A stretch of 64,000 nt of DNA, taken from positions 441,568 through 505,567 of the forward strand of contig JAULTD010000001.1 of assembly GCA_038801785.1 (NCBI GenBank). Reading direction: 5' to 3'. The position numbers and the translations under genes are program-made. Within the stretch, counting starts at the first letter, position 1, and each line of letters opens with the position of its first letter. The notes below the pieces were generated by a model that searched no databases, had not been told where the DNA came from, and saw nothing but the letters and a program-made list of their open reading frames with translations. This DNA is from Candidatus Methanomethylicaceae archaeon GD_Cm_T35_P0_bin.15. GTDB taxonomy: Archaea; Thermoproteota; Methanomethylicia; Methanomethylicales; Methanomethylicaceae. Shown one piece after another: positions 8,382-39,900 of this stretch.

Positions 8382-11059
8382 TGCCTCTTGCCTCCGGTCC
8401 CTGTCCCGATCCCGGTGCTCAGAACCTTCTCTATAATCTTGTCCACGTTGACCGCCTTCCCGTGGTCGCTCTTCGCCGGATCCACGCCATCGTCGCCGTA
8501 CTTGAACTGGATGATCGACCCGTCAGTCCCCCGGACGGTGCCGTCGTACTCCACGCGGACGTCCTGGAGGGCGTTGATGAGCCTCCTTTGCATATAGCCG
8601 CTCTGGCTGGTCCTGACGGCGGTGTCTACAAGCCCCTCTCTCCCTCCCATCGCGTGGAAGAAGAACTCGATGGGGTCGAGCTTGTCCTTGTAGCTGCTGT
8701 ACACGAACCCGTGCGCCTTCGCGCCTAGGTCCCTCGGCTTGAAGTGAGGGAGGGTGCGGTTCTGGTAGCCGCGCGTGATCCGCTCGCCCCGGACGGACTG
8801 CTGGCCTACGCAGGCGACCATGTGCGCCAAGTTCATGAGGCTCCCCCTTGCGCCTGTCCGAGACATGAGGAGGGCGGTATTCCCTTCTTTCAGGTACTGG
8901 CTCGCGATGTCGCCCGCCTTCTCCCTCGCCTCCTCCAGCTCCTGCATGATCTTGGTCTCGAGCGTCTCCTCGAGGGTCCTGCCAGGGAGCCTGTCGAGCA
9001 GGCCCTGGTCGTAGATCTCGATCAGCTTGGCGGTCTTGCTCTCGGCCTCGCTGATGACCGCCCTGATCTTCTCCTTCCCCTCGGCGGGGAGGTCCTCTTC
9101 GTCGAGCCCTATGGTCAGGCCCTTGCTGTCGATGTAGCCCAGGAAGAGCCTGAACGCCTTGTCGATATAGTCCCTGCCGACGTCCGTGCCGTAGTCCTTG
9201 ACGAGCCTGTGGAGGACGCTCTCCGGCTGACTGGCGCCGATCGACTTCTTGTCGAGGACGCCGCCGAGGAGCTGGCCGTCCCTGATTATGACGTAGGCGT
9301 CGTGCTCGCATTCCTCCTTCTTGCACTTGGGGCACTTCTCGCAGACATTCGACTTGAGCGAGTAGTTGAAGCCCTTCGGGAAGAAGAGGCTCGCGAGCTG
9401 CTTGCCAGTCCACCTCTCCTCCGGAGAGGTTATCGCAGGCGGCGGGAGCCCGCCGGTATAGCCGGCCTCGGTCAGGAGCTGGCAGGCCTCCTCGCGGGTG
9501 AGGGTCGTGCTCTTCCTCGTCAGCATGTAAGCGCCGGAGATATAGTCCTGGATCGCGCCCATGATGGGGCCGCCGTACCTCGGGGAGAGTATCTGCTCCT
9601 GGACGAGCATAAGGACGAGGGCCTCGGCCCTGGCCTCCTCGCTCTGAGGGACGTGGAGGTTCATCTCGTCCCCGTCAAAGTCGGCGTTGTAGGGGGGGCA
9701 GACGCAGAGGTTGAGCCTGAAGGTCTTGTACGGGAGGACCCTGACCCGGTGCGCCATTATTGACATCCTGTGGAGCGAGGGCTGCCTGTTGAACATGACG
9801 ATGTCCCCGTCCTTGACGTGCCTCTCGACGATGTAGCCCACCTCGACAGAGTCGGCTACGACCTTGCGATCCTTCGGGAACCTCAGGTCTATGCGCCTCC
9901 CGTCGGGCCGGATGATGTAGTTGGCGCCGGGGTTGATGTCAGGCCCGTTCTCTATGAGTTTCCGCATCGCCTCGATGTTGAAGTGGTTGATCCGCTCGGG
10001 GATGGTGAGGAGTTTGGCTATGTCGACGGGGACCCCCACCTCGTTCATGCTGATGAGGGGGTCTGGGGAGATGACCGTCCGCGCGGAGAAGTCGACGCGC
10101 TTGCCCGAGAGGTTCGACCTGAACCTTCCCTCCTTGCCCTTGAGGCGCTGGGCTATGGTGCGGAGCGGCCTGCCGGACCTGTGCCTCGCCGGCGGGATGC
10201 CCGAGGTCTCGTTGTCGAAGTAGGTGGTGACGTGGTACTGGAGCAGCTCCCAGAGATCCTCTATGATCAGCTGGGGCGCGCCCGCATCTATGTTCTCCTT
10301 GAGGCGCTCGTTGATCCTGATGATGTCGACGAGCTTGTGGGTGAGGTCGTCCTCCGACCTGACGCCCGACTCGAGTGTGATCGACGGCCTCACCGACGAC
10401 GGCGGGACCGGAAGGACAGTGAGGACCACCCACTCGGGCCTCGCCAGCTCGGGGTTCAGGCCGACAAGGGCGGCGTCCTCGTTGGTCACCCTCTCGAGGC
10501 GGGAGCGTATCTCGTTCGCGGCGAGCTTGACGTTCCCCTCCTCGTGCTCCTCGTAGTAGGTGGTCGGCTTCTCGAACTTGATCTTGAACTGCTTCTCCCC
10601 GCAGTAGGGGCACTCGCCGATCTTGGTGGCCTTCTTCATTATCCGCTCTGCCAGCTTGAACCTGAGCTGCGGCCACCTGTGCTTGTAGTGCTCGGTGAGA
10701 CGGGTGTACCTGTCGTGGTCCTCCTTCGAGAGGATGAGCCTGCCGCAGTTCCAGCAGGTGGCCCTGATCATGAGGTAGACGAGCTTGGCGAAGCCGGGGT
10801 GGATGACGGGGCGGGCGAGCTCGATGTGGCCGAAGTGGCCCGGGCACTGCCCGACGCGGTTCCCGCAGGTCTGGCACTTCTGCCCGGGCTCGATCGTCCC
10901 GAGGCGTCTGTCCATAAGGCCGGCGTCGATGGGCACGCCGTCCTCGTCGTATGTATCCGCCGTGATGATATTGACCACGGACATCTTCCGTATGTCATCG
11001 GGCGACAGGAGGCTGAACCTGATCGCCTTGATGGATTTGGTGATCTCTGCTAGAGACAT
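8378..11059 (-). CDS. rpoA1: DNA-directed RNA polymerase subunit A'
   Basis: 893 aa. Zinc-binding '[17 protein letters not shown]'. Catalytic '[10 protein letters not shown]' motif. Confidence 0.97.
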
Positions 11060-11119
11060 CTTTCTCTCATCTCGCTCCTTTCACTATTGTTACAGCTGCC
11101 GGTATCAGTGCCGGCACCA

Positions 11120-11215
11120 CTGCTGATGCGGGCGCAGGTGTAGGCGAAGGTGCAGGCACAGGCACATGTACAGGCATAGGTGCAGGCATAGGCATAGGTA
11201 CAGGTGCAGGTGACA
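11120..11215. repeat. Hexanucleotide (RYAGGY) tandem repeat array of ~13 units in the 161-nt rpoB-rpoA' spacer
   Basis: 'gcaggt gtaggc gaaggt gcaggc acaggc acatgt acaggc ataggt gcaggc ataggc ataggt acaggt gcaggt'. Confidence 0.9.
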
Positions 11216-11220
11216 AGGCT

Positions 11221-14200
11221 TCACACCCTCTCCGAGAGCTTCAGGCGGGGCGCTATCCCCAGGCTCATGAGCTCCTGCAGGAGGAGCTTGAAGGCGTAGG
11301 ACATGACGACGGGGGTGCTCTTCGCCTTCTCGCCGCAGACGGGGCAGACGTGCTTGTCCTTGACCCGGTCGTAGTAGGCGATGAGCCCGCAGTCCTCACA
11401 GATATTGACCACTGTCTTGTCGGACTCGTCGAGGAGCCTCTCCTTGAGGAGCATGGCCGCTCCGTGGCCGATGAGGCAGTCCCTCTCCATCTCGCCGAAC
11501 CTGAGGCCTCCCTCCCTCGCGCGGCCCTCGGTCGGCTGCCTGGTAAGGATCTGGACCGGGCCTCGGGCCCTGGCGTGCATCTTGTCGGCCACCATGTGGT
11601 GGAGCTTGAGGTAGAAGGCGACGCCTATGAAGACCTCGGCCTCGAGGAGCCTGCCGGTCCTCCCGTCGTACATCACCTCCTTCCCGTTCGACTTGAAGCC
11701 CGCCTTAGTGAGGAGGTCCCTCATCGAGGCCTCGCTGGCGCCGCAGAAGGCTGTGCCGTCGACCGGCTGCCCGGAGACGGCGTAGGCCTTGCCGCCCAGG
11801 ACCTCGAGGAGCTGCCCTATGGTCATCCTCGATGGGATGGCGTGCGGGTTGATTATCAGGTCGGGGACTATGCCGTCCTGGGTGTAGGGCATGTCGTACT
11901 GGGGGACGAGCATCCCGACGACCCCCTTCTGGCCGTGCCTCGAGGCGAACTTGTCGCCGAGCTCGGGGACCCTCTCGTTCCTTACCCTGATCTTGACGAG
12001 CTTGTTCCCGTCCGAGGTCTCGGTCATTATCACGAGGTCGACCGTCCCGTCCTCGCCGGCCCTCATCGAGACGGAGGTCTCCCTCCGTATGGGCCCGGTG
12101 GACTCGAACTCGCGGTACTCCTCCAGGAACCTGGGGGGGCTCGTCTTGCCGACGAGGACGTCCCCTCCCTGGACTATGGACTCGGGCTCGATTATGCCGT
12201 CGTCTCCGAGGAAGCGGTAGGACTCGCTGGTGCGGTAGCCCCGGACGTTCGGGGTCGGCATCTCGATCTTGTCCTCCTGGCCGCCGGGGTACCTCCGCTC
12301 CTCGGTCTCGTAGCACCTGAAGAAGGAGGACCTGCCCAGGCCGCGTTCGACGGAGGACCTGTTCATTATGAGTGCGTCTTCTATGTTGTAGCCAGAGTAC
12401 GACAGGATCGCGACGACAAAGTTCTGCCCGGCGGGGCGCCTGTCCAAGTCTAGGATCCTGGCGCTCCGGGTGTTGACGAGCGGCCTCTGGGGGTAGTGGA
12501 GGAGGTGGCCGCGGGTATCGAGGCGCTTAGTAAAGTTGGCGGCGTAAAAGCCGAGCGACTGCTTCACCATGGCGGAGCCGTAGGTGTTCCTGGGCGACTG
12601 GTTTGCCTCCAGGAAGGGTATGAGGGAGGCGCTGATCCCGAGTATCGTGGACGGGATCACCTCCATGTGCGTGTGCTCTCCGGTGAGAGAGTCGACGTCC
12701 AGCGCGATGAGGCTGTTCTCCTCCTCCTCGGCGTCGAGGTACTCGACTATGCCCTGCAGGATTAGATCGTTCCACGTCCACTCGGAGGAGAGGCGGTCGA
12801 GGTGCTCCTTGGTCAGCCTAGGCGTCCCGCCGTCGGCGATCATGAGCGAGCGCCGAACGCGGCCGGCATCGCAGTTGATGTAGACCTCGTCGATCGTCCC
12901 GTACTTGTAGTGGGCGACGTTGACCTCGTGGTTGACCCTCCCGCGCCTCCTGAGCTTCCTTATCTCGGCGACGAGGAGCTCGGGGCGCTGGTGGATGCCG
13001 ATGAGGCGGCCGTTGAGGATGACCTTCGAGCCGGCCATCCCCTTCTTCCGGGCTGACTCGATCTGTTCGGTCTCGAGTTCGTAGAGGAGCTCCTCGATCG
13101 GCTTCTCGTCGACGCCGACCGAGATGAAGGCCATGAGTGCGAGGTTCTTGACGAGGCCGCAGTTAGGCCCCTCGGGGGTCTCGGCCGGGCAGAGGCGCCC
13201 CCACTGGGTGGAGTGGAGGTCCCTGGCCTCGAAGTGGGGCTGGCTCCTGCTCAGCGGGGAGATGATCCTGCGGAGGTGGCCGAGGGTCGAGATGTAGTTC
13301 GTCCTGTCGAGGAGCTGGCTCACGCCCGCCTTGCCGCCGACCCAGTTGCCAGTCGCGAGGGCGTGCCGCATCCTCTCGGTGATGACGTCAGCCCTGACGA
13401 GGGTCGGTATCGAGACGCGCCTGGACCTGCTCTTCGCCCTCTCGAGCTGGTACTTCATGTCCCTGCAGAAGCTCTTGAAGGCGACCCTGAAGAGGCTGGC
13501 GAGGAGGTCCCCTGCCAGTTTGAGGCGCTTGTTTGCATAGTGGTCCTTGTCGTCGGGCTTTCTCCTGCCGAGGGAGAGCTCGATGAGCTTCTCCGCCATC
13601 TGGCCGAGGTAGAGCGCCTTCTTCTTCCTGTCCGGCGCCTCCAGGCCGAGGTGGGGGAGGAGGTACTTGTCGAGGATCTGCTGGGCCCGCGAGATGCGGA
13701 AGTCGCGGGTCTGGCCGATCGCGACGCGGTTGCCGATATAGTCGAGGGCGTCCTCGACGGTGTTGATCTCCATGCCGGCCTCAAGGGTCGGGATGAGCGC
13801 CTTCTGGATGTCGGGGTCGCTCGATACGAACTCTACTATCTCCTTGTCAGAGGCGGTGCCCAGGGCCCTCATGAGGATCGAGAGGGAGATCCTCCCCGGG
13901 ATCGACGGGAACGTCACCTGGAGGCTGGTGTCCTTCATCCTCTCGAGCGTGACCGGGACGCGGAAGCCAGAGGTCGCAGAGAAGACCTTCGCGACGTGGG
14001 TGACGGGCGAGGCGCCCTCCATCACATCGACGAGGATGCGGTTGACCGCCAAGTCCTCCTGTATGACGACGACGCGCTCCGATCCGTTGATGATAAAGTA
14101 ACCTCCCGGGTCCTCGGGGTCCTCGCCCGCGCGGATGAGCTCGTCCTTGCTCATCTTCGAGAGGGCGCAGTACGCAGAGCGGACCATTATGGGGAGCTTG

Positions 14201-14556
14201 CCGATGTAGACCTCTATCGGCTCCTCCTCATAGCCGTCCTCCACCGGTATGACCGTGAGGTGCATCGACGAGGCGTAGGTGAGGTTGCGCTGCCTCGCCT
14301 CCATCGGCAGGATCTCCTTCTCGGAGCCGTCCGCCTCATGGATCGTCGGCTTGGATATCGAGAGCTTGCCCAGCTTTATCTTGTAGCCGGGGAGGTCGGT
14401 CTCGATGACGCCCTGCTCGTTGACGATCTCCTGGAGCTTGTTCCGGATAAAGTCGTCGAACGAGTCGAGGTGCTGCCTCACCAGCCCCTTCTCCTTGAAG
14501 AATGATTCTATCAGGGTCCACCTTTCATCCATACAGACAGTGCTCAACAAACTCAC
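11221..14556 (-). CDS. rpoB: DNA-directed RNA polymerase subunit B (unsplit, fused B'/B'')
   Basis: 1111 aa as a single ORF. Conserved RpoB blocks 'GDKFASRHGQKG' and 'GGLRFGEMERD'. C-terminal zinc ribbon 'CEDCG...CPVCG'. Confidence 0.97.
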   Translation of the reverse strand: MSLLSTVCMDERWTLIESFFKEKGLVRQHLDSFDDFIRNKLQEIVNEQGVIETDLPGYKIKLGKLSISKPTIHEADGSEKEILPMEARQRNLTYASSMHLTVIPVEDGYEEEPIEVYIGKLPIMVRSAYCALSKMSKDELIRAGEDPEDPGGYFIINGSERVVVIQEDLAVNRILVDVMEGASPVTHVAKVFSATSGFRVPVTLERMKDTSLQVTFPSIPGRISLSILMRALGTASDKEIVEFVSSDPDIQKALIPTLEAGMEINTVEDALDYIGNRVAIGQTRDFRISRAQQILDKYLLPHLGLEAPDRKKKALYLGQMAEKLIELSLGRRKPDDKDHYANKRLKLAGDLLASLFRVAFKSFCRDMKYQLERAKSRSRRVSIPTLVRADVITERMRHALATGNWVGGKAGVSQLLDRTNYISTLGHLRRIISPLSRSQPHFEARDLHSTQWGRLCPAETPEGPNCGLVKNLALMAFISVGVDEKPIEELLYELETEQIESARKKGMAGSKVILNGRLIGIHQRPELLVAEIRKLRRRGRVNHEVNVAHYKYGTIDEVYINCDAGRVRRSLMIADGGTPRLTKEHLDRLSSEWTWNDLILQGIVEYLDAEEEENSLIALDVDSLTGEHTHMEVIPSTILGISASLIPFLEANQSPRNTYGSAMVKQSLGFYAANFTKRLDTRGHLLHYPQRPLVNTRSARILDLDRRPAGQNFVVAILSYSGYNIEDALIMNRSSVERGLGRSSFFRCYETEERRYPGGQEDKIEMPTPNVRGYRTSESYRFLGDDGIIEPESIVQGGDVLVGKTSPPRFLEEYREFESTGPIRRETSVSMRAGEDGTVDLVIMTETSDGNKLVKIRVRNERVPELGDKFASRHGQKGVVGMLVPQYDMPYTQDGIVPDLIINPHAIPSRMTIGQLLEVLGGKAYAVSGQPVDGTAFCGASEASMRDLLTKAGFKSNGKEVMYDGRTGRLLEAEVFIGVAFYLKLHHMVADKMHARARGPVQILTRQPTEGRAREGGLRFGEMERDCLIGHGAAMLLKERLLDESDKTVVNICEDCGLIAYYDRVKDKHVCPVCGEKAKSTPVVMSYAFKLLLQELMSLGIAPRLKLSERV

Positions 14557-21777: not shown

Positions 21778-22179
21778 CTAGAGGGGGACGACCTTCACGC
21801 CGATCCTCTCCGCGGCAGCGATCTGCCTGGCGTCCCTCGACAGCAGCTCGGCGCCCAGCTTCGCGGCCAGCGCCAGGTAGAGCGCGTCATAAAACGCCAA
21901 GTTATTCTTTGAGGCGATCTCGAAAGCGGGCTTGAGGAGGTCCCTCGGCGGATGAAGCTTCACATTCGTGCCAGTTAATTCCAGCAGAACCTCGAGCGAT
22001 CTCTGAACCAACTCTTCATCGATCAATGCGCGCCTCCGCGCGATAAACACCGCGTTGAAGCTCTCCTTGATGACGAGATCCATGCTTACGGCGCCCCTCC
22101 CGAGCAGCGCCCCGATCCGCTCGAACCCCTTCTCCTTCAGGACGTAAGACACGAGTGCAGAGGCATCAGTCACTATCAC
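21778..22179 (-). CDS. vapC: PIN-domain ribonuclease toxin VapC
   Basis: 133 aa. N-terminal 'MIVTDASALV' with the conserved Asp5. 'FYDALYLALA' and C-terminal acidic residues. Overlaps the upstream antitoxin by 14 nt. Confidence 0.85.
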   Translation of the reverse strand: MIVTDASALVSYVLKEKGFERIGALLGRGAVSMDLVIKESFNAVFIARRRALIDEELVQRSLEVLLELTGTNVKLHPPRDLLKPAFEIASKNNLAFYDALYLALAAKLGAELLSRDARQIAAAERIGVKVVPL

Positions 22180-22408
22180 GAATTTCTCTCACCAGCTTTG
22201 CTGCTGTCCCCTCAGGGTGGGTCGGCATAGTCCTGAGCAACGCCTCCACGCGCTCCATGGTCTCGTGCCTCCTAGCTTCTTCGAGCTTCTGGACTATGAA
22301 GGAGCGTATCTCGTCGGACCAGCATATACGATCGCTGAACCGCTCCATCTCCGATTTGACTTCGTCCGGGATCTTGACGCTCACTACCGCCATTCTCCCA
22401 CCAGACAT
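22166..22408 (-). CDS. vapB: VapB-type antitoxin (RHH/CopG-like)
   Basis: 80 aa. 'VVSVKIPDEVKSEMERF' is RHH-like. Overlaps vapC start/stop. Confidence 0.7.
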   Translation of the reverse strand: MSGGRMAVVSVKIPDEVKSEMERFSDRICWSDEIRSFIVQKLEEARRHETMERVEALLRTMPTHPEGTAAKLVREIRDSD

Positions 22409-22646
22409 AAGCCATAACGCCTAAAGGTACAGGTACGTCCACTTTTTTGGTTTACTTAATTAAACATATCAGTATAACGCGACAAGTTGAATCCAGTATG
22501 AACGTAGATCGACTGCTTCAGCAGCCCAAGCATTTTGGCAGTATTGGTGTAGGTCGGACCGTAACGCGTTATGTTATATACCCCGCCCTCTCTCAAAAGG
22601 CTTAAAAAGATAATAGGAGCCTTCGATAAATATACATGGGCATTAC

Positions 22647-23501
22647 GTGATAGGTATGGCCTTGAAGGAGCGCTCTGAAAGGCTCGGGCTCCCGCTATTT
22701 CTGATAGGACATGGAAATAAGGGGTTTGTGGGAAAAACAAGGCTGCAGAAGATAATATACCTCATCCAGAACGAGGCCAAGTTGGATATTTATGATTTTA
22801 GGAAGCATTACTACGGGCCATTCAGCCGCGAGCTGGACAACGACCTGCTGAGCAGTCAAGATCTTGTCGAGGTCATATCGCACCCCAAGATACTGGCCCC
22901 ACATGAAAATTATTTCGAATTCAAGCTTACTCCCGAAGGGATGCGTGTAATGGAAGAGATGAAGAAGAGTTTGAGCGAGCCGTTAAGGGCGAGAATCGAG
23001 TCGTTAATCAATAGGTACTCTGCGTTACCGCTTGGTAAGTTACTCGAGGAGGCGTATGCGACCTTCGATGCGGTTGACGATCGTCTGAGGGGTCTTGAGA
23101 GGAGCACAGACAGGCTGCGCGATAATGTCCGTGAAATATTTAATACACACTGCAACCGGCAGTCGTTGTTTATTCTGACGGTTTTGGATTACGTCAAGGA
23201 CGTCCTTGAAAAGGCTAAGGACGTACGAGACGAGGTCCAGAAAGCAGTAATTCTTAGACTAGCCGCAGAGTTGGTCGAGACCTGTGAGGAGGCCTTTCCC
23301 GAGATCGCCCCTCCAGTAGATAGCGAGAAGCTCAGACCGGTTTTCATGAATATAGCTGACGTGTGGCTAGCGCTTATCGAATACTGTGACAAAAGGCGTA
23401 TTGTGAAGAATCCATTCGAAGCCCGGTTCGATGAAATCCTTAGCGAGGATGAGGCAGTACGTCTACAAACCGCCATGCAGGCTATCGAGCTCAAAGCGTA
23501 G
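22647..23501 (+). CDS. Panacea-domain (DUF4065, SocA-like) protein with an uncharacterised ~170-aa helical C-terminal domain
   Basis: N-terminal 'GKTRLQKIIYLIQNEAKLDIYDFRKHYYGPFSRELDNDL' matches the Panacea signature (LQKLLY ... W/Y.YGPv..el). Low-GC segment. Confidence 0.6.
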   Translation: MIGMALKERSERLGLPLFLIGHGNKGFVGKTRLQKIIYLIQNEAKLDIYDFRKHYYGPFSRELDNDLLSSQDLVEVISHPKILAPHENYFEFKLTPEGMRVMEEMKKSLSEPLRARIESLINRYSALPLGKLLEEAYATFDAVDDRLRGLERSTDRLRDNVREIFNTHCNRQSLFILTVLDYVKDVLEKAKDVRDEVQKAVILRLAAELVETCEEAFPEIAPPVDSEKLRPVFMNIADVWLALIEYCDKRRIVKNPFEARFDEILSEDEAVRLQTAMQAIELKA

Positions 23502-23707
23502 CCGTCCTGGATACCAATACGTGCATCCACTATTGCACCCATGCTACGTTCTCCATCCATGGGAAAAAGTTCACGCTTCAAACTTCCTGCACGCCGCGCA
23601 TACGTCCATACATTCAATCATTAATTAATAAGAGAGGATGTCAGATTCTGATTCCGGATGTAGTCGAGCCCGAGTTCAACAAAAATATCTGGAATGTCCT
23701 CTGTGAG

Positions 23708-24085
23708 GTGGTGCCTAAATGTGGTTTGACGACCAGAGTAGTTCCTCCCTTCCTCAAGGAGACTGCCAATAATTTTAAAGCCCTGAAGAGCAAATGCTTG
23801 CCCGCAACGGCCTCGACCACATCGCTAGACAAGGTTGCGAAGTTTTATGCGGATCTCTGGAAGAGGCCGGAGATGAAGTATAAGATCGAGAAGTGGGCAA
23901 GCATAAAGCGCAAGAAACCTTCGGAAGGACCCCCTAGCGGGGCCGATCTCAAAATATTGGCAGTTGCAGTCGATAATACGCATAGTCAATCAGAGCTAGT
24001 TACATTTGATCATGATTACATTGTTTTTTCTGACGAGATCACGCGAGATCTTGGAGTTATGGTAACAAATGGCTTCCTTCTATGA
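23708..24085 (+). CDS. Hypothetical protein, possibly PIN-like. The open frame extends upstream to 23453 with no ATG/GTG/TTG start, and an ATG sits 1 nt out of frame at 23638
   Basis: The upstream in-frame translation '..GCQILIPDVVEPEF..' looks like a PIN N-terminus. An SD-like AAGAGAGGA precedes the out-of-frame ATG. Probable frameshifted gene. Confidence 0.35.
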   Translation: MVPKCGLTTRVVPPFLKETANNFKALKSKCLPATASTTSLDKVAKFYADLWKRPEMKYKIEKWASIKRKKPSEGPPSGADLKILAVAVDNTHSQSELVTFDHDYIVFSDEITRDLGVMVTNGFLL

Positions 24086-24261
24086 CCTTAGTCCGCTAGC
24101 GATCCTTATTTGACTGGGGGGCCTCAGACAACCATCGAGGTTTATCGGGAGCGTTCTAGGATATCCGTCTGCAGGTCATGTGCAGATCGTAGCAGGCTTG
24201 AAACGAATACGTGTTCTGGATGTTCCATTAATGCGGACAGTAAAAAGGGGGGTGGGAAGGG

Positions 24262-27695: not shown

Positions 27696-27813
27696 GGGGC
27701 TATCATGTGATGTTTAATCCTATAAAACTATTAGAGAATCGCCGATCAGCGCCCCCAGTTTGGAACCTGAGCGCTCCTAGGAAACTTTAAACGCTCGCCA
27801 ATAAGGCAACGGC

Positions 27814-29277
27814 TCATCTGCTATACAGAACCTCGAGTATGTATTTTGCGTAAGGGTAAAGCTGATCCAACTGTTTCCGGGACAGGAAAGCAGAAGATAC
27901 CTCGGCCAGGTCGGACTTTGACAGCAGGTTTAGCCGAGCATAAGCAAACATAGATATAGCTAGAATAACTAGTGTTCCGATAATCCAATTAATATTTAGA
28001 AAAATCATCGCGAGCGCTACTGACGAGGGGATTACTGCGAAGAGGAGAGAGGAATTCCAATCGATAGCATAGCCTATACGGCGGGCCATGAAATATACTG
28101 CGAATAATGCAACGAACAGACCTGAAATGTAGGCGAGGGCAGCACCATTATTACCATAAAGGGCAACCAAGATAGGGTAGAGGGCAATACGCGGTACATT
28201 GGTTGAGAAACCCAGCAGAGTAACGTATCGATAATGACCATATGCATAGATGAGGGAGTTGAAGCCGTAAGAGATCGGGGCGACAAGACAGCCTATCATG
28301 AGGAGCTGGAGGGTAAAGGATGCTTCGACATAAGATGCCCCGAGAAGAGAGAGGGGGACATAAGGGAAGGCAATGACCACAGCAGCCAAGGGGGCAATAA
28401 TGACGGAAGTAAGGCGGATTGACCTAGATGTAGAGCGCTTCCTCCCGTCGCGCATACCGCTCAATATAGGAAACATGAGACCTAGAAGAGACAGAGGGAG
28501 GGTGTAGACTATTTGCGATATCTGGAAGGCTATATAGTATGTGCCAGCCTGCGTTGCACCGGCTAAACCATAAACGCCGATTACGCCGAGCTGTGTGCCA
28601 GCAGTCAATACGAGGGAGGGAACCCAGGAGGGCAAACCTTGCCTGATCGATTCTTTTGCGAGGTGAAGACTAGGTTTTGTGGCTGACACCGTTCTTCGTG
28701 AGGCTAAGAGAAGTATAACGTCCTGAACCATACCTGCGATAATGAATGCTAGCATTACGCCCATAAAGCCAGTTTCAGCATATAGGAGAAGAAGCCCAAG
28801 AGCCAAGCGTGCTAATGTGGCGAGAATGGTAGAAAGCGCGATTATGTGGGTCTTCAATGTAGCATTGTAAAGCGCATTGGCGACTGGTGGAATGGAACCG
28901 AGTAGGAAGAGTGCCGTAATGAAGGGAATTGTGAATTGTGTTAAACCTATGAGAGTGCCTATTACAGATATAAATAAAGCGGCGGAGCCACTTACGGCCA
29001 AACTAGTTATGAATGCGGACGCGAAAACGGCGCTTAACCCTTTTCGATCATTGGAACCATATGCCTGACCAAACATACGTGTGGCGCCAGAGGAGATACC
29101 TAAACTGGAGATACTGGTTATGAGTGAGGCCAAGGCTATAATGGCGGCAGCATCGCCCACTATTGACGGATGCACAAATTGGGATGCAAGCAGCCAGAAA
29201 AGGTAACCTACAAAACTACTGACGATCCCGGAAATGTAGAGCCAGAAGCTGCCCCGTATTACTCGGTTAAGAGACAT
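27814..29277 (-). CDS. Wzx-like oligosaccharide flippase (MOP superfamily)
   Basis: 487 aa with ~14 TM segments. Low GC. Its 3' 320 bp are repeated at 31816-32137. Confidence 0.6.
   Translation of the reverse strand: MSLNRVIRGSFWLYISGIVSSFVGYLFWLLASQFVHPSIVGDAAAIIALASLITSISSLGISSGATRMFGQAYGSNDRKGLSAVFASAFITSLAVSGSAALFISVIGTLIGLTQFTIPFITALFLLGSIPPVANALYNATLKTHIIALSTILATLARLALGLLLLYAETGFMGVMLAFIIAGMVQDVILLLASRRTVSATKPSLHLAKESIRQGLPSWVPSLVLTAGTQLGVIGVYGLAGATQAGTYYIAFQISQIVYTLPLSLLGLMFPILSGMRDGRKRSTSRSIRLTSVIIAPLAAVVIAFPYVPLSLLGASYVEASFTLQLLMIGCLVAPISYGFNSLIYAYGHYRYVTLLGFSTNVPRIALYPILVALYGNNGAALAYISGLFVALFAVYFMARRIGYAIDWNSSLLFAVIPSSVALAMIFLNINWIIGTLVILAISMFAYARLNLLSKSDLAEVSSAFLSRKQLDQLYPYAKYILEVLYSR
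27815..28137. repeat. Copy 1 of a ~320-bp direct repeat (the 3' end of the flippase gene); copy 2 at 31816-32137. The central ~100 bp are identical
   Basis: Side-by-side alignment of the two stretches: a perfect core 'tattttgcgtaagggtaaagctgatccaactgtttccgggacaggaaagcagaagatacctcggccaggtcggactttgacagcaggtttag', with ~75% identity in the flanks. Confidence 0.9.
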
Positions 29278-29831
29278 TTACAAACGCACAGGTGTGACCT
29301 ATTCATTTAAGGGTTAATAAGATTACCATATCTAGAAACAATCCCTCGCACAGCTTTGTCGCCCTATAAAAATAAAGGGCTTCAGATCGTTTTTCGGCGT
29401 AAAGCCTTTGACAAGAACATAAGCCACTAAAATAAGCGAAAATACAACCCGTCTTAGTAGTTACATCCGCTATCAATCCAGTACCATCGACGTTAATTTT
29501 CCGCCTTCGCGTTCTCATCGTTTGTTAGAGGATCACTTTCTGGCAAATGTAGAGGGATGAAGATGATGCCTTTTTCGGCTATCCAATAGGAGCTTTTGGG
29601 GTAGACATTACAGGTTAAAGACTAATTAGTCTTAACTTTTTCTTTAGAACAGAGGGTAAAATAAGCCATAGCCGATGTAAAGCATGCGGGATTTTTAGTT
29701 TATTACTTAATATATATGGCATAAGCGCTTCTGAAGGCATGACTGCAAGAGACTTTTGTACGCGCACTTCAAGAGTTTTATTACGTTTGTGTCGGGCTTT
29801 AGTATATGAAGGGAGTACGGATTTCATTATG

Positions 29832-30287
29832 TTAAATACTAACAGATAAGTCTATGTACTTAAAGACCGGCATATGACGTCGGGCGTTATATGTTGTGCT
29901 AAGATTTCTAAAGAGTATGTAATCTGCAGGCAGTTCACCCTTGAACTCAAGATCTATCTGATGCAGACCGTCATCGTTATGAATAATGTTTGAATAACCA
30001 AAATCAAAGGCGTACCCAGACAATATCGGGATGGCCAGCTCATCCCTACGCCCAGTATCAAATCTCCTGATGAGTTCCTCATAATATTTCTTTGCAAGTC
30101 TAACACTTTGTTCAAAATAGTCTTGTTGATATAAGATTTCGATTGCGCGGTAAGCGAGTAAATCGCCTTCTATCCACTTGGACTTAAGCACAGGCTCATG
30201 TTTAATTAAGAACTCTCCAACACGGTACTCAGCCTTATTGGCAAGTTTCGCTTCCGTTTTCTTCTCCACATGAAGCTCTGGTTCCAA
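29832..30287 (-). CDS. Hypothetical protein (low-GC island)
   Basis: 151-aa ORF. Codon usage is consistent with its low-GC neighbours. No recognisable motif. Confidence 0.4.
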   Translation of the reverse strand: MEPELHVEKKTEAKLANKAEYRVGEFLIKHEPVLKSKWIEGDLLAYRAIEILYQQDYFEQSVRLAKKYYEELIRRFDTGRRDELAIPILSGYAFDFGYSNIIHNDDGLHQIDLEFKGELPADYILFRNLSTTYNARRHMPVFKYIDLSVSI

Positions 30288-30328
30288 ATATAACGTCGTG
30301 ATAGAGTGATTACTTCGTTTACGCTGAT

Positions 30329-31358
30329 TTATGAGAAATGTTTAGCGACCCATTTAGGCTCGGCGATTGATGAGGAATTAGTTCCAGCGAGTATAAGAAA
30401 TGACTTTGCAAATTCCCTAAGTAGCCCGGCATGAGACAGAGTTTTAACAGCAAGAGCTTCATTAAATAAATACTTCCTAGTTAAATCTCCGGAGAACGGA
30501 GTAGAAATCCAGTTATGTAAATAGTAATTTTCACCTTCATCAACATCACTAAATAGAGTAGTAGCAAATCTGTAATCCGGGAAACAATAGTAATGTTGTA
30601 ATTTGGAAAAACCGGCTAATTTCAGTTTCAAGTCTAATTCCCTTTTGCTAAAAGTGATTATCCCGGGTTTACTTGGGGATCCTTCGATACCATTAAAGAA
30701 CTTCCCAGTGAGATCTTCAGTGTAGCCACACCAGTATTTAATGCCCAGCCTATCTTCAATAGCGAGAACAAGAATCCCGTCAGGCCTTAGCGCGGTTTTT
30801 GCGTGTTTCAATACCAATAAAGCAGATCTCTCGGGCTCTGCAATATCAACAATTTTAGGTGAATACTCCAATACGCCGACTAATACCACAAGATCATACT
30901 CGGGCTTAAAACAAATGCGCATAAAATCAGAGTTATAAATTGTAACATTCTGTAAATCTCTGCACCTTTCACGAGCGATTTTTGATCGGATAAAAGACCC
31001 TTCTACACCTACCACATTACGAAAGTTTTCACCCAAATATCGAGTGATGGCCCCACATCCAGAGCCTAATTCCAGAACATTTAGCGCTTTAGGTAAATCA
31101 AGAGCTTAGTATATTTGAGCGCCCCATGCCGAGGTGACATCGAGTCGGCCAATCGCAAGTTTTCCTTTCGAGCTCTTCCGAATTATCTCGCAAATCACTA
31201 GCATTTTTTAATATGGCATATATTTGATTTTCAGTAAATGCACCATCGGAATATGTGAAAGAACGTTTATCATCAGTTAGAACATAAATACCGCTCTCCC
31301 AATCATAGGTAAAATCGTCAAGGGCATAACTGCCGTTAGTTTTCACCGAAGACACCAC
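30329..31358 (-). pseudogene. Class I SAM-dependent methyltransferase split by a frameshift near 31098-31110 (N-terminal 86-aa ORF 31098-31358 plus C-terminal 235-aa ORF 30329-31036)
   Basis: SAM motif I 'VLELGSGCGAITRYLG' lies in-frame with the downstream ORF but directly after a stop codon and before any start codon. The upstream ORF ends 1 nt out of frame. Confidence 0.55.
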
Positions 31359-31764
31359 ATAACACCTTATACTAAGCTAGATTTATTGGAACTTTAGCAT
31401 TTATAAAAAGAGGGGGTAATCCCGCATATTTTAAAAATACGCCTCACAAACGGATTAAAACACTAAGATCCTCATCGCGCGATTAAGAGCATATCCAACA
31501 TAGTGATTGGACCATCACTATCGATCAAACACGGCGAGTATTGAGTGAAGCGAAGGGTTCCGCAATTTAATTCGTGAAGTGAGCATCAGAAAAGATGAGT
31601 CGGCCAAGCGACAGGCTAACAATCAGAACATCCGCAGACACGGGGGTAAGAAAGATTAGTCCGCAGATACTGATGCGATCATCACGTTAGAATCAAACGT
31701 TCTCAATCATATATTTTGCAGATCATGCGCGACCTGAGGATAGAACTTTTGGAAGTTTAGTGTC

Positions 31765-32266
31765 TTAAACCGTTACTCTCCCCTCGAAGGGCAGAAGGCG
31801 GATCAAACCACAATTCATCTGCCGTACAGAACCTCTATAATATATTTTGCGTAAGGGTAAAGCTGATCCAACTGTTTCCGGGACAGGAAAGCAGAAGATA
31901 CCTCGGCCAGGTCGGACTTTGACAGCAGGTTTAGTCGAGCATAAGCAAACAGAGACGGCCAGAATAACCAACGTTCCAATAATCCAATTAATGTGTAGAA
32001 ACACCATCATGAGCACTACTGATGAAGGGATTGCTGCAAGGATAAGGGAGGAGGCCCGACAGGCAGTATAGCCTATGCGGCGGATCATGAAGTATACCAC
32101 GAACAACGCAACGAATAGACCTGAGATGTAGGTGAGGTTGCGGATCCTCCCGGTGGAGAGGCCGTCAAGGACGGCGACCTCGTTGGAAAGGGAGAGCGCG
32201 CGGGCTAGGCAGGAGCCGATGAAGCCTGCCCCGCTGGTGAGGAGGATCCTTTTTGCTGCGTATCAT
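31765..32266 (-). pseudogene. Chimeric remnant: epimerase 5' fragment (32110-32266, frameshifted at an A5 run) fused to a flippase 3' fragment (31765-32106). Both are diverged duplicates of the genes at 26742-27695 and 27814-29277
   Basis: The translation 'MIRSKK(I)LLTSGAGFIGSCL..' matches 'MMRDKRVLITGGAGFIGSCL..'. '..VYFMIRRIGY..IPSSVVLMMVFLHINWIIGTLVILA' matches the flippase C-terminus. ~100 bp are identical at the nucleotide level. Confidence 0.7.
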
Positions 32267-32329
32267 AAGGTCACCTCAGACATTAATGGTGTAAAAGTAT
32301 TAAAAAGAACCTATGCTTGGATCTGAGCG

Positions 32330-32405
32330 GGGCAGAAAGCGAAGGGCGCTTGAGAACGGGATGGCGAATCGAAGGACGGGCTCAATATAATCCCCACCTA
32401 GTCAT
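32330..32405 (-). pseudogene. Remnant of the 5' end and upstream region of a DUF457 hydrolase gene (duplicate of 26560-26640)
   Basis: 'gaacgggatggcgaa.tcgaaggacgggctcaatataatcccc' matches 'gaacgggatggcgaagtggaggacgggctccatataatcccc' at 26585-26630. Confidence 0.55.
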
Positions 32406-32529
32406 TGCGGCGGTGGAGCCGATAAGCTGTGAGGTGGCAGGGCACCTTCAGTGGGGGCTACCCAAGATATTGAGTTGCTCCTTTTTAGTCTCAGGGCATC
32501 AGTGAGGATACGCAGTGTGCACGTCAACC

Positions 32530-33483
32530 TTATTTAATAATTTGTTTCCTAAATGCGCGTATTCTGCATATGGCAGCATATAAAAACCCAGCGAACCCGC
32601 TTGCATAAACTATAAACTCATCTAGGTTATCGAACTTATCGCCAGCATGAATTCTTTTCAGTTTGAGCGGATGAGTATCATGTGTATTAAACCCAAAATC
32701 GACAGTTAGACCAAAGTCATATCCCGCAGCCATACACAATTGAACCTCTCTATCAGAATAGTCGCCGTTTGGATATGCGATTGCGTTTATGATCAGACCA
32801 TACTCTTTTTCGAGTATGCGTTTCGAGGCAAATATTTCATCGTATGCTTCGTCAGTATTGCATTGCGTTAAGCAAGGATGAAATAAAGTATGAGACTGAA
32901 AGTTTACGTAGGGCAACATTTCGTAAATTTGCTTTTTTGACAAAGCGTGTGGAGTGTCATAGCCTTTTTCATTTTCGAACCCAATCTTCTTCAGGATTTG
33001 GAGTCGTTTATTATTTGAAACTTTTTTCAGTTGCTCAGTTGTAAGCGGCAGATATGCTTCGTTAGATTGTGCTTCTTTGAACCAAAAGTGTCTGTTAGTA
33101 TTTGCAATACCAGAACATAGGAATATTGTTATTGGAACACCATACTTTTTAAATATCGGAAGTAGATCGTAGTTGCTCTTATGCCCGTCATCGAAGGTGA
33201 TCACAAGTGATTTTTTGGGGAAGCGTTCTTTTCTTCTGTATAAATCGAAAAATTCGTTTAAGCTTATTATCTGGTAATTATTCACCAAGTATCTAAACGT
33301 TTTTTCTGCATTCTTAGGATCAATTTCATGAAAGAAGAGTATAGTAACTCTATTTTTTTGAAGGGTCTCCCTAAATATAAAAGGCAACCCCGAGAACCTA
33401 AGGCATAGATATATAAGGCGTCTGATCCGAATATTTTGCCTCGCATAAACCAGCAACTTGGTTAACACCTCTGAAATCGACAT
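32530..33483 (-). CDS. Polysaccharide deacetylase (NodB-homology, CE4 family)
   Basis: NodB motif 'VITFDDGHKSNYD'. Conserved His/Asp pattern ('HTLFHP'). Low GC (~35%). Confidence 0.8.
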   Translation of the reverse strand: MSISEVLTKLLVYARQNIRIRRLIYLCLRFSGLPFIFRETLQKNRVTILFFHEIDPKNAEKTFRYLVNNYQIISLNEFFDLYRRKERFPKKSLVITFDDGHKSNYDLLPIFKKYGVPITIFLCSGIANTNRHFWFKEAQSNEAYLPLTTEQLKKVSNNKRLQILKKIGFENEKGYDTPHALSKKQIYEMLPYVNFQSHTLFHPCLTQCNTDEAYDEIFASKRILEKEYGLIINAIAYPNGDYSDREVQLCMAAGYDFGLTVDFGFNTHDTHPLKLKRIHAGDKFDNLDEFIVYASGFAGFLYAAICRIRAFRKQIIK

Positions 33484-33504
33484 AGTTTGATCGCTAGTCG
33501 CGCT

Positions 33505-34593
33505 TCACCACACGTCTGACTGAAAAAGAGACCAACTCTCACTAAATCTCGTGTCAACTCCACCAACGAAATATGCACTGTCGTTGAAATTAGAAGAGAT
33601 GGGCTTGATTAATAGGCCAGGGAGTTTGCTTTTACCGACTAATTTCATCGCTTTTAATAATCGTACCATTCTATCGCCAGAATATTTAAAACCACTTTTC
33701 CGAAAGTTCAATAACTCCCCCTGATTACGAGTAAAGACAGGCACCAGTATACTGGGGACCAATACTTTTTCAGATATTCCTTTGATTAGACGTATAAAGT
33801 GGTCCGACTTTAAGTATGCATATTCCATCAATGAATAATATTTATTGCTAGTTTTTTGCAATGCAAGATAGCCAGTAGTTTTACCTCCTTCTCTACTATA
33901 TGCATAAACATGTTCGTAAGGACTCCCCCCGAATCGCCAAGTATAAAATTCTTTGTCTCTGATATTGCGAATCTTACTCTTTTCCGTGAATGATTGCATT
34001 AAACTATATATCTCACTAATTTTTAATTCATTTGTAATCTCAAACATTACATTGTTTCGTTCAGACCTGATTTTAGCATCTGAATCACTCTCATAAATAA
34101 GCTTTTTCAAGCCATTTACTGGATAAAAAGAGTACATGTATTCCCGTTCACCCACAGAAATGAAGCCACACTTTAGGTAACCAGCGGTAGATGCTTCATT
34201 TGACGAAAGGCTTAGTAAAAATCGAATATTCGAATTTTCACGCATATCTTCGAAAGCATAGTTAGTAAGGCTGGAAAAAAGTCCTTGCCGCCTAAAATCT
34301 GGATGAACGATTGTGTCAGCTGAAATTCCGACCAAGAATTCGTCACTATTGCAGGTAAGCTTCTGAATTACAAAAGAACGCTGAGCGATAATACGATCCC
34401 CATAGAGAACGAGATATCTAAACGGTCTTTTAGTGTAGGGGTTGCTTTCATAAATCCACTCAACTAACTTTTTCCTCTCATTGAAATTTTTATTTCGCCA
34501 TTGAAGGCCTAGAAATTCAACTAGTTGATCTTTTAAACTAGAATCGTACCTACAGATGCGGACTTTAGGCATATCTTGCATTCCCCTTAGCAA
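33505..34593 (-). CDS. GNAT-fold acyltransferase, two-lobed (FemAB/CelD-like) family
   Basis: 'HPDFRRQGLFSSL' GNAT motif A. 362 aa. Very low GC. Confidence 0.5.
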   Translation of the reverse strand: MLRGMQDMPKVRICRYDSSLKDQLVEFLGLQWRNKNFNERKKLVEWIYESNPYTKRPFRYLVLYGDRIIAQRSFVIQKLTCNSDEFLVGISADTIVHPDFRRQGLFSSLTNYAFEDMRENSNIRFLLSLSSNEASTAGYLKCGFISVGEREYMYSFYPVNGLKKLIYESDSDAKIRSERNNVMFEITNELKISEIYSLMQSFTEKSKIRNIRDKEFYTWRFGGSPYEHVYAYSREGGKTTGYLALQKTSNKYYSLMEYAYLKSDHFIRLIKGISEKVLVPSILVPVFTRNQGELLNFRKSGFKYSGDRMVRLLKAMKLVGKSKLPGLLIKPISSNFNDSAYFVGGVDTRFSESWSLFQSDVW

Positions 34594-34854
34594 GTCTTAA
34601 CCATCAAAGCATCAACAGATAAATAAAAGATCTAAATTGTTCTCCACCTATCTTTTGTGGTAAATCATTGATAGTTTTAGCCGAGACTTCATTTTACTCG
34701 ACTATGTTTTATGTCTTTGCATTTGTATAATCTCCCCGTTTTTTCAACAGGAGTTTTGTTACGCCAAGCCAGCCCTCGACTCTATACGATGCTGTAGAAA
34801 CATCAGATATGAGTTTATTAGGTGTTTTATGTTCGCAAGCTATGCTAGTCAAAT

Positions 34855-35949
34855 CTAAAGATTTTCTATGACGGAGTTAATCTTATTAGATATTTTTTTC
34901 CAATCAAACAAGTCAACTGCCAATTTGCGAGATTGCTCAGACATTTTACAAAGCTCTTCATCGGATAACGCCTTAAGATATCGAAAGCCTTCAATAAGAT
35001 CGACGCACTTGTTAGAACGAGCTACAAAACCACAGCGATATTGTCTTGTTAAAAAGGATGCGTCACCGACATCAGTTACTAAAACGGGCTTTCCCATTGC
35101 CACATATTCAGCGAATTTTGTAGGAGCGGCTACGGCAGTTGCTACGTTAATTGGTCTTGGCAAAACCAAGACGTCGCAAGCCGCATAATACTTGGGAATC
35201 GCCTCTCTCGACATGCTTGGCAGCTTAATAATATCGCGCTTCCTCCAAACAGAATTACCACCGACTATAAGAAAAGCAAACCGTTCATCGTTTGTTGCAT
35301 GTGCAGCGTTAATAAATTCTTCAACTCCTTGCCAAGGTTGCATACCACCAATGTAACCTATCACGAATTTCTTATCAATACCAAGCCTAGTACGTGTTGG
35401 TTGGGCTCCATCGCCAATAGGTTTGAATCTCTCCAAATCGACGCCATTAGTTATATATTCCATTTTATCATAACTAGTGTCATATCTGATTCGATTATAT
35501 TGCATCATAGTTTTAGAAACACAAAAAACTTTATCAGACGTCTCCAAGGCAATTTTCTCCATTAAAAGAGCGGTGTTTGACAATATGTTTTTTTTCCAAT
35601 AGTCATTAGAGAGCAATAGTTCATCCCGAGCATAACCATGCATATCAAATATTTGTGGTACGCGTTTAACGCGTAAGCAAGAAAGGAAAGCAGGCAAACA
35701 CCTGTTTGCAAAAATCAGTTGGGGCGAGTGTTTGCGTATCAAAGCGTTTATTTTTACTGCTGCATCTAGTCTAAATCTAGAAACAGCCATAGTTTCATCA
35801 AAGTTATTATCGGTTGTTCGCCTGGTGCTTAAATTAATTAACTTAACATCATGGTTAAATGATTTAAGCATCTGCGTAATCTTTAATATGCGTATCCACA
35901 TCGAGTCTTGGGGATCACATGGGCCTATACAAATTGAAAGAATTTTCAA
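34855..35949 (-). CDS. Glycosyltransferase family 4 (GT-B, retaining)
   Basis: C-terminal 'FAEYVAMGKPVLVTDVG' (E-x7-E-like) and 'IGGMQPWQG' are typical of GT4. Confidence 0.8.
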   Translation of the reverse strand: MKILSICIGPCDPQDSMWIRILKITQMLKSFNHDVKLINLSTRRTTDNNFDETMAVSRFRLDAAVKINALIRKHSPQLIFANRCLPAFLSCLRVKRVPQIFDMHGYARDELLLSNDYWKKNILSNTALLMEKIALETSDKVFCVSKTMMQYNRIRYDTSYDKMEYITNGVDLERFKPIGDGAQPTRTRLGIDKKFVIGYIGGMQPWQGVEEFINAAHATNDERFAFLIVGGNSVWRKRDIIKLPSMSREAIPKYYAACDVLVLPRPINVATAVAAPTKFAEYVAMGKPVLVTDVGDASFLTRQYRCGFVARSNKCVDLIEGFRYLKALSDEELCKMSEQSRKLAVDLFDWKKISNKINSVIENL

Positions 35950-36255
35950 TTTTAATACTTTAATTAAGTTTTTTAAATATACGATATATCAAGATAAAGT
36001 TATCGTGGGTCTCCGGCATATATTGCATGTAATGAGGCGTTATGCAGAATAACCCTTCTTATGCAGCTCATAGTAGTAACACTAGACACGCGTACAGATT
36101 AGTTACAAATACAGGCACGAAAACGGAGGGTCTTTCTGCCAATAGAACGGCGCTCTCGACCCAATATCTATAAGATTAGAATTGCTAAACTAAAGAGATA
36201 GTTATAAAGGAGGGCATCATCTATAAATTTAGAGGCATAATTTAAATAAAAACAG

Positions 36256-38430: not shown

Positions 38431-38460
38431 GTTTGTAGATTAAATAAGTTTTCCCACCGT

Positions 38461-39642: not shown

Positions 39643-39689
39643 CCCTAGAACGATCTGACTCGATCGGCTCTAGTCATGACCTCGGCGCT

Positions 39690-39900
39690 AAACATCTACA
39701 CTAGTCCAGTAGTCCACATTCCATTGGGGCACACTGCCCACCACGGAGTAGGTTTCCTGCGGGGATGTGAAGGCATACTGAACGCTGACCCAAGAATCAG
39801 CAATAGTCGCATCGACTGAAGATTCGCTCGGTACTGCAGGGACGGCTCCAAGTGAGGCAATTACTGCAAGTATTAGTAAAAAAGAATACTCGCCTCAAAT
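39690..39900 (-). pseudogene. Decayed 5' fragment of a DUF1616-family gene (paralog of 45266-46294); start codon mutated ATG->ATT
   Basis: The translation '..LILAVIASLGAVPAVPSESSVDATIADSWVSVQYAFTSPQETYSVVGSVPQ' matches 'LALAVIASLGAVSAVQGAPADATIAGSWASVQDAFVSLQDAYAVAGSVPQ'. Nucleotide alignment confirms it. Confidence 0.65.

Follow-up and report, generated by a model that had tools for sequence, protein, structure and literature searches.

Several described systems come close to the locus reported here. In the type II PanA/PanT modules (PF13274, DUF4065; Kurata et al. 2022, PMC8832971; Ernits et al. 2023, PMC10440598) the antitoxin gene comes first and abuts a co-directional toxin gene, and in multidomain PanA antitoxins it is the attached extra domain that neutralises (PMC10440598). 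The C-terminal domain (CTD) of DarG, present in the DarTG complex 7yk3, is known to bind and inhibit its toxin directly. VapBC pairs combine a toxin of the PIN fold, usually of ~130 amino acids and with four conserved acidic residues, with an antitoxin gene that lies upstream and overlaps it. At the level of translation, the -4 nt NTGA overlap, in which the first codon of the downstream gene takes bases 1-3 and the upstream gene's stop codon bases 2-4, is the commonest prokaryotic stop/start overlap and mediates termination-reinitiation coupling, in archaea as well as in bacteria (Huber et al. 2019, PMC6728339; PMC10666635; PMC12548453). We analysed a window of 64,000 nucleotides from Candidatus Methanomethylicaceae archaeon GD_Cm_T35_P0_bin.15 (contig JAULTD010000001.1) and describe a two-gene cassette at positions 22647-24085 of its forward strand, in which an antitoxin-like gene (gene 1) is followed directly by an open reading frame (ORF) for a predicted PIN-fold nuclease (gene 2, the PIN ORF) that has no start codon. 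The cassette is a new archaeal toxin-antitoxin variant, which joins a Panacea/DarG-CTD-like, antitoxin-like protein to a PIN partner encoded by a deeply conserved start-less gene at an NTAR overlap (R, purine). The anatomy of this pair is solid, and the best-supported mechanism that we infer for its expression is reinitiation, or a start-codon-independent restart, at the gene 1 stop codon.

An intact PIN reading frame without a start codon

Gene 1 extends over positions 22656-23501 (+), encodes 281 amino acids from ATG 22656, or 284 if GTG 22647 is used, and ends in a TAG at 23499-23501. An earlier annotation made from the letters alone, here called the sequence-only reading, had listed an upstream ORF of 284 amino acids, and this ORF is present (22647-23501, +; 284 codons counted from the GTG). 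The sequence context makes ATG 22656 the more likely start, because GTGAT precedes it (GTGATAGGT; CGTGAT-N4-ATG also occurs in the related loci L001 and L004) and because the gene 1 protein is called at 279-281 amino acids in other assemblies. The PIN ORF spans positions 23498-24085 (+), with 195 codons and a TGA stop (24083-24085). Its frame is open from 23450 to that stop and contains no ATG, GTG or TTG before GTG 23708, which is codon 71. The conserved protein begins with VAVLDTNTCIHY ('VAVLDTN') at GTA 23498-23500, a segment that gives the classic first strand of a PIN domain with the first catalytic Asp. This GTA is in the -1 frame and overlaps the TAG of gene 1 in a GTAG junction (23498-23501, +). 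The sequence-only reading had correctly noticed a start-less downstream frame, at QILIPDVVEPEF (23642-23677), and an out-of-frame ATG at 23638-23640; it took QILIPDVVEPEF for the PIN N-terminus, however, and thereby misplaced the latter by 144 nt. This segment is the second strand with E59, the true N-terminus lies at 23498, and the out-of-frame ATG is incidental, being part of the coding linker before strand beta-2.

The putative acidic set of the active site (D5, E59, D150 and D171, also D173) is invariant in the aligned sequences, distant thaumarchaeal homologues included. The first canonical start comes 66 codons after the codon for Asp5 (VLDTN; 23510-23512, +), the first conserved acidic residue; Asp5 is invariant in all Methanomethylicota-type ORFs, and the thaumarchaeal homologues have IPDAN at this place. 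The codon for Glu59 (IPDVVEPEF; 23672-23674, +), the second, stands among the invariant columns I52, P53, V56 and E59. Asp150 (GPPSGADLKILA; 23945-23947, +), the third, is invariant also in the thaumarchaeal homologues, and Asp171-His-Asp173 (TFDHDY; 24008-24016, +), with invariant D171 and D173, provides the fourth acidic position.

The AlphaFold model of the PIN ORF, built like that of gene 1 from a shallow alignment of 9 sequences, reaches a pLDDT of 93.9 and a pTM of 0.89. Its top Foldseek matches in the PDB are VapC proteins (5ecw, 5x3t, 5k8j, PAE2754, 6sd6), together with HARP, a PIN-type minimal RNase P; these matches have probabilities of 0.96-1.0, E-values that are modest (from 4.6e-3 upwards) and target-normalised TM-scores of <=0.68. 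The sole Pfam match of the PIN ORF is PIN_12 (PF16289), at 14.9 bits and below the gathering score of 32; among its relatives PIN_12 is matched by four of seven (best E=2e-5, all below the gathering score) and PF01850 weakly by two of seven (~0.009). A single-sequence search of PDB sequences gave no meaningful match, a search of a large protein database with the PIN ORF alone retrieved only its own truncated copy, and the comparison of the family with the neighbouring canonical VapC by hhalign was not significant. On the model, the product is best described as a predicted PIN (VapC-like) nuclease that is divergent, enlarged and catalytically complete and that has a hairpin inserted and helices added. 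The PIN-like character of the downstream protein and its toxin-antitoxin-like pairing, both proposed by the sequence-only reading, are thus borne out by a conserved two-gene cassette and a modelled PIN fold.

An assembly error does not account for the missing start codon. The locus recurs with 100% identity on a 223-kb JGI contig, and a 90%-identity cluster of the PIN protein holds seven members from NCBI, JGI, Logan and ENA, on contigs of differing lengths, all called as 70-125 amino acids only, as gene finders do with a start-less ORF. Beyond these near-identical copies we compared 12 loci, namely the window and 11 diverged ones, each with a gene 1 relative and with sequence beyond the stop codon of that gene. 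In the 11 further loci the identity of gene 1 falls from 56% to 34% (the latter in L008), and L027 and L028 were reached by profile search only; the sources are metagenome-assembled genomes of Ca. Methanosuratincola, Methanomethylicota and Methylarchaceae, and unassigned metagenome contigs.

The sequence-only reading had offered a toxin inactivated by frameshift, with a 1-nt indel at 23638-23645, or else an unusual mode of expression, and it is the latter that the evidence favours. That the PIN ORF is a decaying or inactivated gene, having lost its start or suffered a 1-nt indel, or that it yields only a truncated product from GTG 23708, would fit the gene callers, which give fragments of only 70-147 amino acids, and the true frameshift found later in the ORF of L028. 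In the window, though, the frame is continuous from 23450, and nearly all loci keep the ORF intact at 191-198 codons where the contig allows, at pairwise identities of 28-49% and under purifying selection; the exceptions are the internal frameshift of L028 and an early end near the contig end in L011. The start-less N-terminal ~70 codons are conserved as much as the rest of the protein. Between L012 and L025 this region has a proportion of synonymous differences (pS) of 0.71 and of non-synonymous differences (pN) of 0.13, with dN/dS ~0.07 and saturated synonymous sites, and in other pairs of loci pS is 0.7-0.9 and pN 0.3-0.5. As synonymous sites are saturated whilst non-synonymous change is low, the start-less N-terminal region is translated. 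All four acidic residues are invariant, a truncated product would lose Asp5, and it is the full-length model that folds with high confidence. Decay or truncation is therefore largely refuted already, and we regard it as extremely improbable. An intact, translated and start-less PIN ORF coupled to a Panacea/DarG-CTD-like partner is, as anatomy alone, highly probable.

The frameshift of L028 (TARA-derived) lies at ~1500-1780, inside the PIN ORF, where ...GPRKALTW* stands against ...KGPDLVILSTLA in the next frame; this copy is either decaying or affected by an assembly error.

The NTAR junction and a proposed restart of translation

In all 12 loci the PIN ORF lies directly 3' of gene 1, always in the -1 frame, and starts at the base before the stop codon. 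The junction is NTAR throughout, N being G in seven loci, A in four and T in one; the stop is TAG in eight loci, TAA in four and TGA in none, and therefore the overlapping codon is GTA (seven loci), ATA (four) or TTA (one). Written as the last gene 1 codon and stop, followed by the first PIN-frame codons through the catalytic Asp, the GTA junctions read GCG-TAG / GTA GCC GTC CTG GAT in the window, ATG-TAG / GTA GAA GTG CTT GAC in L001, GCG-TAA / GTA ACG GTA TTA GAC in L004, GAG-TAA / GTA ACA GTT GTA GAC in L005, GGG-TAG / GTA GCA GTT TTA GAC in L011, GAG-TAA / GTA ATC GTA TTA GAT in L025 and CAG-TAG / GTA GTC CTG CTG GAT in L026. Those with ATA are CAA-TAA / ATA ATA ATC TTG GAT in L012, TCA-TAG / ATA GTT CCA GAT in L008, GAA-TAG / ATA GTT CTG GAT in L027 and CCA-TAG / ATA GTT TCA CTT GAC in L028, and the one with TTA is GAT-TAG / TTA GCA GTA ATG GAC in L021. 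ATG, GTG and TTG are absent at or before the catalytic Asp in nine of the 12 loci, and upstream in the PIN frame they are absent in all 12. The last residue of gene 1 is variable (A, M, E, G, Q, S, D, P), and the third base of its last codon is a purine in 11/12. From their sequence, the PIN codons before the Asp look like ordinary elongation (sense) codons.

The register is that of the canonical -4 nt overlap, with the first downstream codon on bases 1-3 and the upstream stop on bases 2-4; unlike there, the stop is TAG or TAA, and the overlapping GTA, ATA or TTA is not a start codon. Surveys of -4 overlaps list ATGA and GTGA only (PMC6728339, PMC10666635, PMC12548453). TGA makes up 22 of the 36 stops in the window, yet none of the 12 gene 1 stops at the junctions. 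As an internal control, the rpoA'/rpoA'' junction of the same window is a canonical ATGA overlap (8378-8381, GCAATGAGC), which demonstrates that this host has normal -4 coupling and TGA stops. In the four TAA loci one transition, GTAA to GTGA or ATAA to ATGA, would be enough for a canonical coupled start, with the stop and the hydrophobic residue both retained, and no locus has it. A start at codon -4 relative to the Asp yields MxVLDTN, a typical VapC N-terminus.

Because the PIN ORF begins at the gene 1 stop without a start codon, it is probably translatable only by ribosomes that have just finished gene 1. We propose a mechanism in which a ribosome finishing gene 1 would release the antitoxin-like protein and restart on the spot in the -1 frame, using initiator tRNA at the GUA or AUA, a poor codon for this, or else dispensing with a start codon. 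PIN synthesis would then occur only when the gene 1 protein is made, and in smaller amount, and such weak, strictly coupled translation could keep the nuclease sub-stoichiometric to its partner, which would be useful for a toxin. Coupling is known to require overlaps of -4 or -1 nt (PMC6728339, PMC10666635, PMC12548453). Reinitiation accepts near-cognate codons, although still with Met-tRNAi, and unrecycled eukaryotic 80S ribosomes can restart near stop codons without a start codon (PMC10275272). That the PIN family is expressed without a start codon, through a -1-frame restart on the overlapping GUA or AUA or with no initiator, and that this state is kept by a selection that avoids the one-step GUGA, is a tentative proposal, and we attach considerable doubt to it.

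Several observations weigh against a restart of this kind. GUA is not a recognised initiation codon; according to the work cited in PMC2268962 it is very poor in E. coli and discriminated against by initiation factor 3, and our literature search found no archaeal precedent for GUA initiation. In three loci a canonical start does occur no more than two codons from the Asp (GTG in L001, TTG in L012, ATG in L021), so the solutions within the family may be mixed. That N in NTA is preferably G or A could also come from a preference for Val or Ile in strand beta-1, where the thaumarchaeal homologues have Ile.

These three loci equally lend themselves to another explanation, in which the PIN protein is initiated independently at any weak near-cognate codon near the 5' end and the overlap with the stop is incidental compaction. 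In the genetic code table 11, CTG, ATA, ATC and ATT are rare starts. A candidate CTG is present in the window (23507, codon -1), CTG also occurs in L026 and L027, and elsewhere ATA, ATC, ACG, TTG, GTG or ATG are available, including the TTG of L012, ATG of L021 and GTG of L001. Before the Asp of three loci (L004, with L024; L005; L011), however, all seven table-11 initiators are missing. Moreover, NTG is not enriched among the Leu and Val codons at -1 and -2, where Val is written GTC, GTA, GTT or GTG and Leu CTG, CTT, TTA or TTG; there is no conserved Shine-Dalgarno-like motif upstream of the PIN ORF, whereas gene 1 has its GTGAT before the ATG; and even between deeply diverged loci the -4 register stays exactly the same. 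We consider independent initiation distinctly unlikely.

A programmed -1 ribosomal frameshift at the last codons or the stop of gene 1 would dispense with a start codon altogether and produce an antitoxin-PIN fusion of ~479 amino acids. It agrees with the PIN frame being the -1 frame in 12/12 loci and open for 12-35 codons upstream of the stop, with the elongation-like PIN codons at -4 to -1, and with the terminal open -1 stretch being the longest in the gene in L005 and L012 (each P~0.01). Stop plus pyrimidine is a weak termination context under eukaryote-type rules, and a pyrimidine follows the stop in 11 of the 12 loci; Thr, Val or Ala at PIN residue -3 also accounts for this. In a test of whether the -1 frame stays open ahead of the stop more than by chance, a first version found no T at 31 at-risk positions (P~1e-5) but was biased by a post hoc tail length, and the unbiased version gave a non-significant P=0.15 for the sum, with a Fisher value of 0.017 that is anticonservative. 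An A8 run 7 nt before the stop of L008 would suit slippage, but a conserved X_XXY_YYZ slippery site is lacking across the 12 loci, A_AAA_AAA occurs in L008 only, and the P-site codons (GCG, ATG, GAG, GGG, CAA, TCA, GAT, CAG, GAA, CCA) are unable to re-pair in the -1 frame. Folds of -10 to +60 revealed no shared RNA structure downstream (z-scores -2.9 to +2.0), a natural in-frame fusion is absent among the 150 best gene 1 relatives, and gene 1, as a separate protein, keeps its conservation right up to the last C-terminal residues. We regard frameshifting as an unlikely explanation.

Readthrough of the TAG as pyrrolysine was also considered and rejected, as the zero frame meets a TAA ~46 codons after the TAG and its product is not PIN, and four loci use TAA. 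The A8 run of L008 (Methylarchaceae; 4520-4544, CTA AAA AAA ATT TCA TAG) has no counterpart in the other loci and is a potential slippery or transcriptional-slippage tract.

The gene 1 protein and the toxin-antitoxin reading

The gene 1 protein is modelled with a pLDDT of 81 as a winged helix followed by four long helices, and nine close homologues align across its full length. The N-terminal winged-helix domain (22668-23066, +; residues ~8-140 in the 284-amino-acid numbering) carries the motifs LQKIIYL and HYYGPFSRELD. The C-terminal helical domain (23076-23495, +; residues ~144-283) consists of the four long helices and a terminal helix, is conserved family-wide with invariant columns that include NRQ, PPV, LR, YC and PF, and matches no Pfam family. 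The sequence-only reading had left a C-terminal domain of ~170 amino acids unassigned, and it is still without a family match, but it takes the form of a conserved helical bundle of ~140 amino acids. By analogy with the multidomain PanA antitoxins, this domain is a candidate for the part that binds and neutralises PIN.

The protein as a whole matches no Pfam family at E<=1, and a single-sequence search of PDB sequences gave nothing meaningful. Weak matches were obtained in NCBIfam to DarG (E=1.4e-4, residues 27-70) and in PADLOC to PDC-M19A (1.9e-7), DarG (1.3e-5) and a type I S-subunit appendage. A profile of the nine homologues retrieved 1606 proteins at E<=1e-3, of which ~60 have both domains, whereas many proteins of ~145 amino acids (E<=1e-11) match at residues ~8-140 only. 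Among 72 such short proteins, 16 match PF13274 SocA_Panacea (E<=1e-3, best 3.1e-8) and 10 match PadR, and in support of this profile link hhalign of alignment A1 against A4 gives 99.9% probability. The clear Panacea signature claimed by the sequence-only reading therefore stands as a superfamily-level relation, by profile and fold; as a direct family assignment it falls, and gene 1 is a distant relative.

Gene 1 and the PIN ORF thus resemble PanA/PanT in having a co-directional antitoxin-like gene first that abuts the toxin gene, in the LQK...Y...YGP motifs and the profile link of the N-domain to PF13274 members, and in the extra domain on a Panacea-like core. The differences are substantial. 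Gene 1 stays below the PF13274 cut-off of 25.7, with no match for the window protein and 13.7 bits (E=0.12) for the best close homologue, P0005; its N-domain is equally near PadR-type winged helices; its ~140-amino-acid C-domain matches no described Panacea-associated domain; the main text of PMC8832971 does not mention PIN as PanT; and the present cassette family is archaeal, with a toxin gene that lacks a start codon.

The top Foldseek PDB match of the gene 1 model is the C-terminal toxin-binding domain of DarG (7yk3_B, E=8.8e-4, probability 1.0), followed by PadR-type regulators. It is this part of DarG that the sequence matches also cover (positions 186-229 of NCBIfam NF048014; PADLOC DarG 178-254). 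Unlike DarG, gene 1 has no macrodomain match, DarT is absent and the partner is PIN, and it scores 21 bits where 250 bits are the cut-off; since the TM-score between the two is low (0.29-0.43), only the architecture is shared. Compared with VapBC, the PIN fold, the four conserved acidic residues and the upstream, overlapping antitoxin gene are alike. The PIN protein is nevertheless longer (195 against ~130 amino acids) and has a beta-hairpin inserted and helices added, it reaches the gathering score of no Pfam PIN family, PIN_12 being the best, gene 1 is not of the AbrB, ribbon-helix-helix, MerR or PHD type, and the PIN gene has no start codon.

The cassette need not be a toxin-antitoxin module. 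A winged-helix regulator or adaptor could form a complex with an RNA-processing PIN nuclease, whatever the mechanism of expression, and overlapping coupled pairs often encode subunits of heteromeric complexes (PMC10666635). TPR-repeat fusions in some gene 1 relatives agree with this, as do the thaumarchaeal PIN homologues P0017-P0023 (~31% identity, all catalytic residues). The latter are solo genes with an ATG of their own (MSTKRHITIPDANVC) and an AT-rich upstream region; no relative of gene 1 lies within 3.5 kb, which departs from a type II module, as PIN homologues do not always come with an antitoxin; the PIN protein therefore need not be toxic, and the toxin label is weakened. On the other side stand the low-GC island that holds the cassette, the patchy distribution, the closest structural relative of gene 1, which is an antitoxin domain, and the defence or mobile neighbours in several loci. 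The neighbouring genes vary by locus and comprise radical SAM/SPL, an integrase with an N6/N4 methyltransferase, Mrr, NYN and VapBC; such differing neighbours fit a mobile two-gene module. A search of viral contigs found no relatives. We hold the regulator-nuclease complex to be quite improbable. The reading that we prefer, a mobile type II toxin-antitoxin-like pair whose PIN protein is made by termination-reinitiation without a start codon, is plausible at somewhat less than even probability; reinitiation, stoichiometric control, toxicity and neutralisation are the parts of it that we infer.

The TPR repeats (~280-300 amino acids, N-terminal) are found in the gene 1 relatives P0037, P0064, P0070, P0082 and P0112 (526-578 amino acids), and in P0115 (575 amino acids) a type I restriction S subunit (PF01420) carries the gene 1-type N-domain as an appendage, so that the two-domain module is reused in larger proteins. 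After two of the solo thaumarchaeal PIN genes an open frame of 55-60 codons overlaps the PIN stop in an 'empty' stretch of ~540 nt (L015 4087-4251, L016 4081-4260). It is alike in both (SM..RYRIKIIS...WVLIF.KCGV.NS...WK.DDIRLIENR) and could be an uncalled partner gene, or reflect mere close relatedness.

Gene finders, and all public annotations seen, miss the PIN gene or truncate it to 70-147 amino acids, and therefore a conserved catalytic domain is invisible in the databases; where a TAA or TAG stop precedes them, further start-less genes may be overlooked alike. This family widens the range of the Panacea/DarG C-terminal antitoxin fold to archaeal PIN partners and to a new helical domain joined to it. 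Archaeal ribosomes are recycled by ABCE1, as in eukaryotes. If our reading is true, the cassette would show that reinitiation independent of a start codon, or dependent on GUA, occurs naturally and is conserved in archaea, and it would offer a natural substrate on which to study post-termination archaeal ribosomes at non-start codons. The output of toxin would be hard-wired to a small fraction of that of antitoxin, a new way to fix the toxin:antitoxin ratio.

Chromosomal setting of the cassette

The cassette lies in a low-GC island of ~1.7 kb (22440-24150), which has ~45-51% GC in the composition profile against 60-70% GC in its flanks; the GC content at third codon positions (GC3) is 0.59 in the cassette gene and 0.8-0.9 in host genes. 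Flanking repeats, tRNA genes and att sites sought around the island gave nothing convincing, and ARAGORN found no tRNA gene in the whole window (1-64000). On its upstream side the cassette adjoins a canonical VapBC pair (21778-22408, -), which places two PIN modules side by side. The neighbouring VapC has 133 amino acids (PF01850, E=1.6e-9) and starts at GTG 22179, and its gene overlaps the stop of an 80-amino-acid VapB-like ORF (22166-22408) by 14 nt.

The 64-kb window is archaeal chromosome, as it carries RpoB and a split RpoA'/A'' at 6.8-14.5 kb; these archaeal RNA polymerase genes, rpoB (1111 amino acids), rpoA' (893 amino acids) and rpoA'' (517 amino acids), lie at 6828-14556 (-). Farther along the window, at ~27800-44200, a large low-GC block has genes of 37-48% GC and a GC3 of 0.34-0.48, against 0.8-0.9 elsewhere. 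Its products are DUF2206 membrane proteins and proteins of polysaccharide biosynthesis and of the flippase type, and it looks like a horizontally acquired surface-glycan island.

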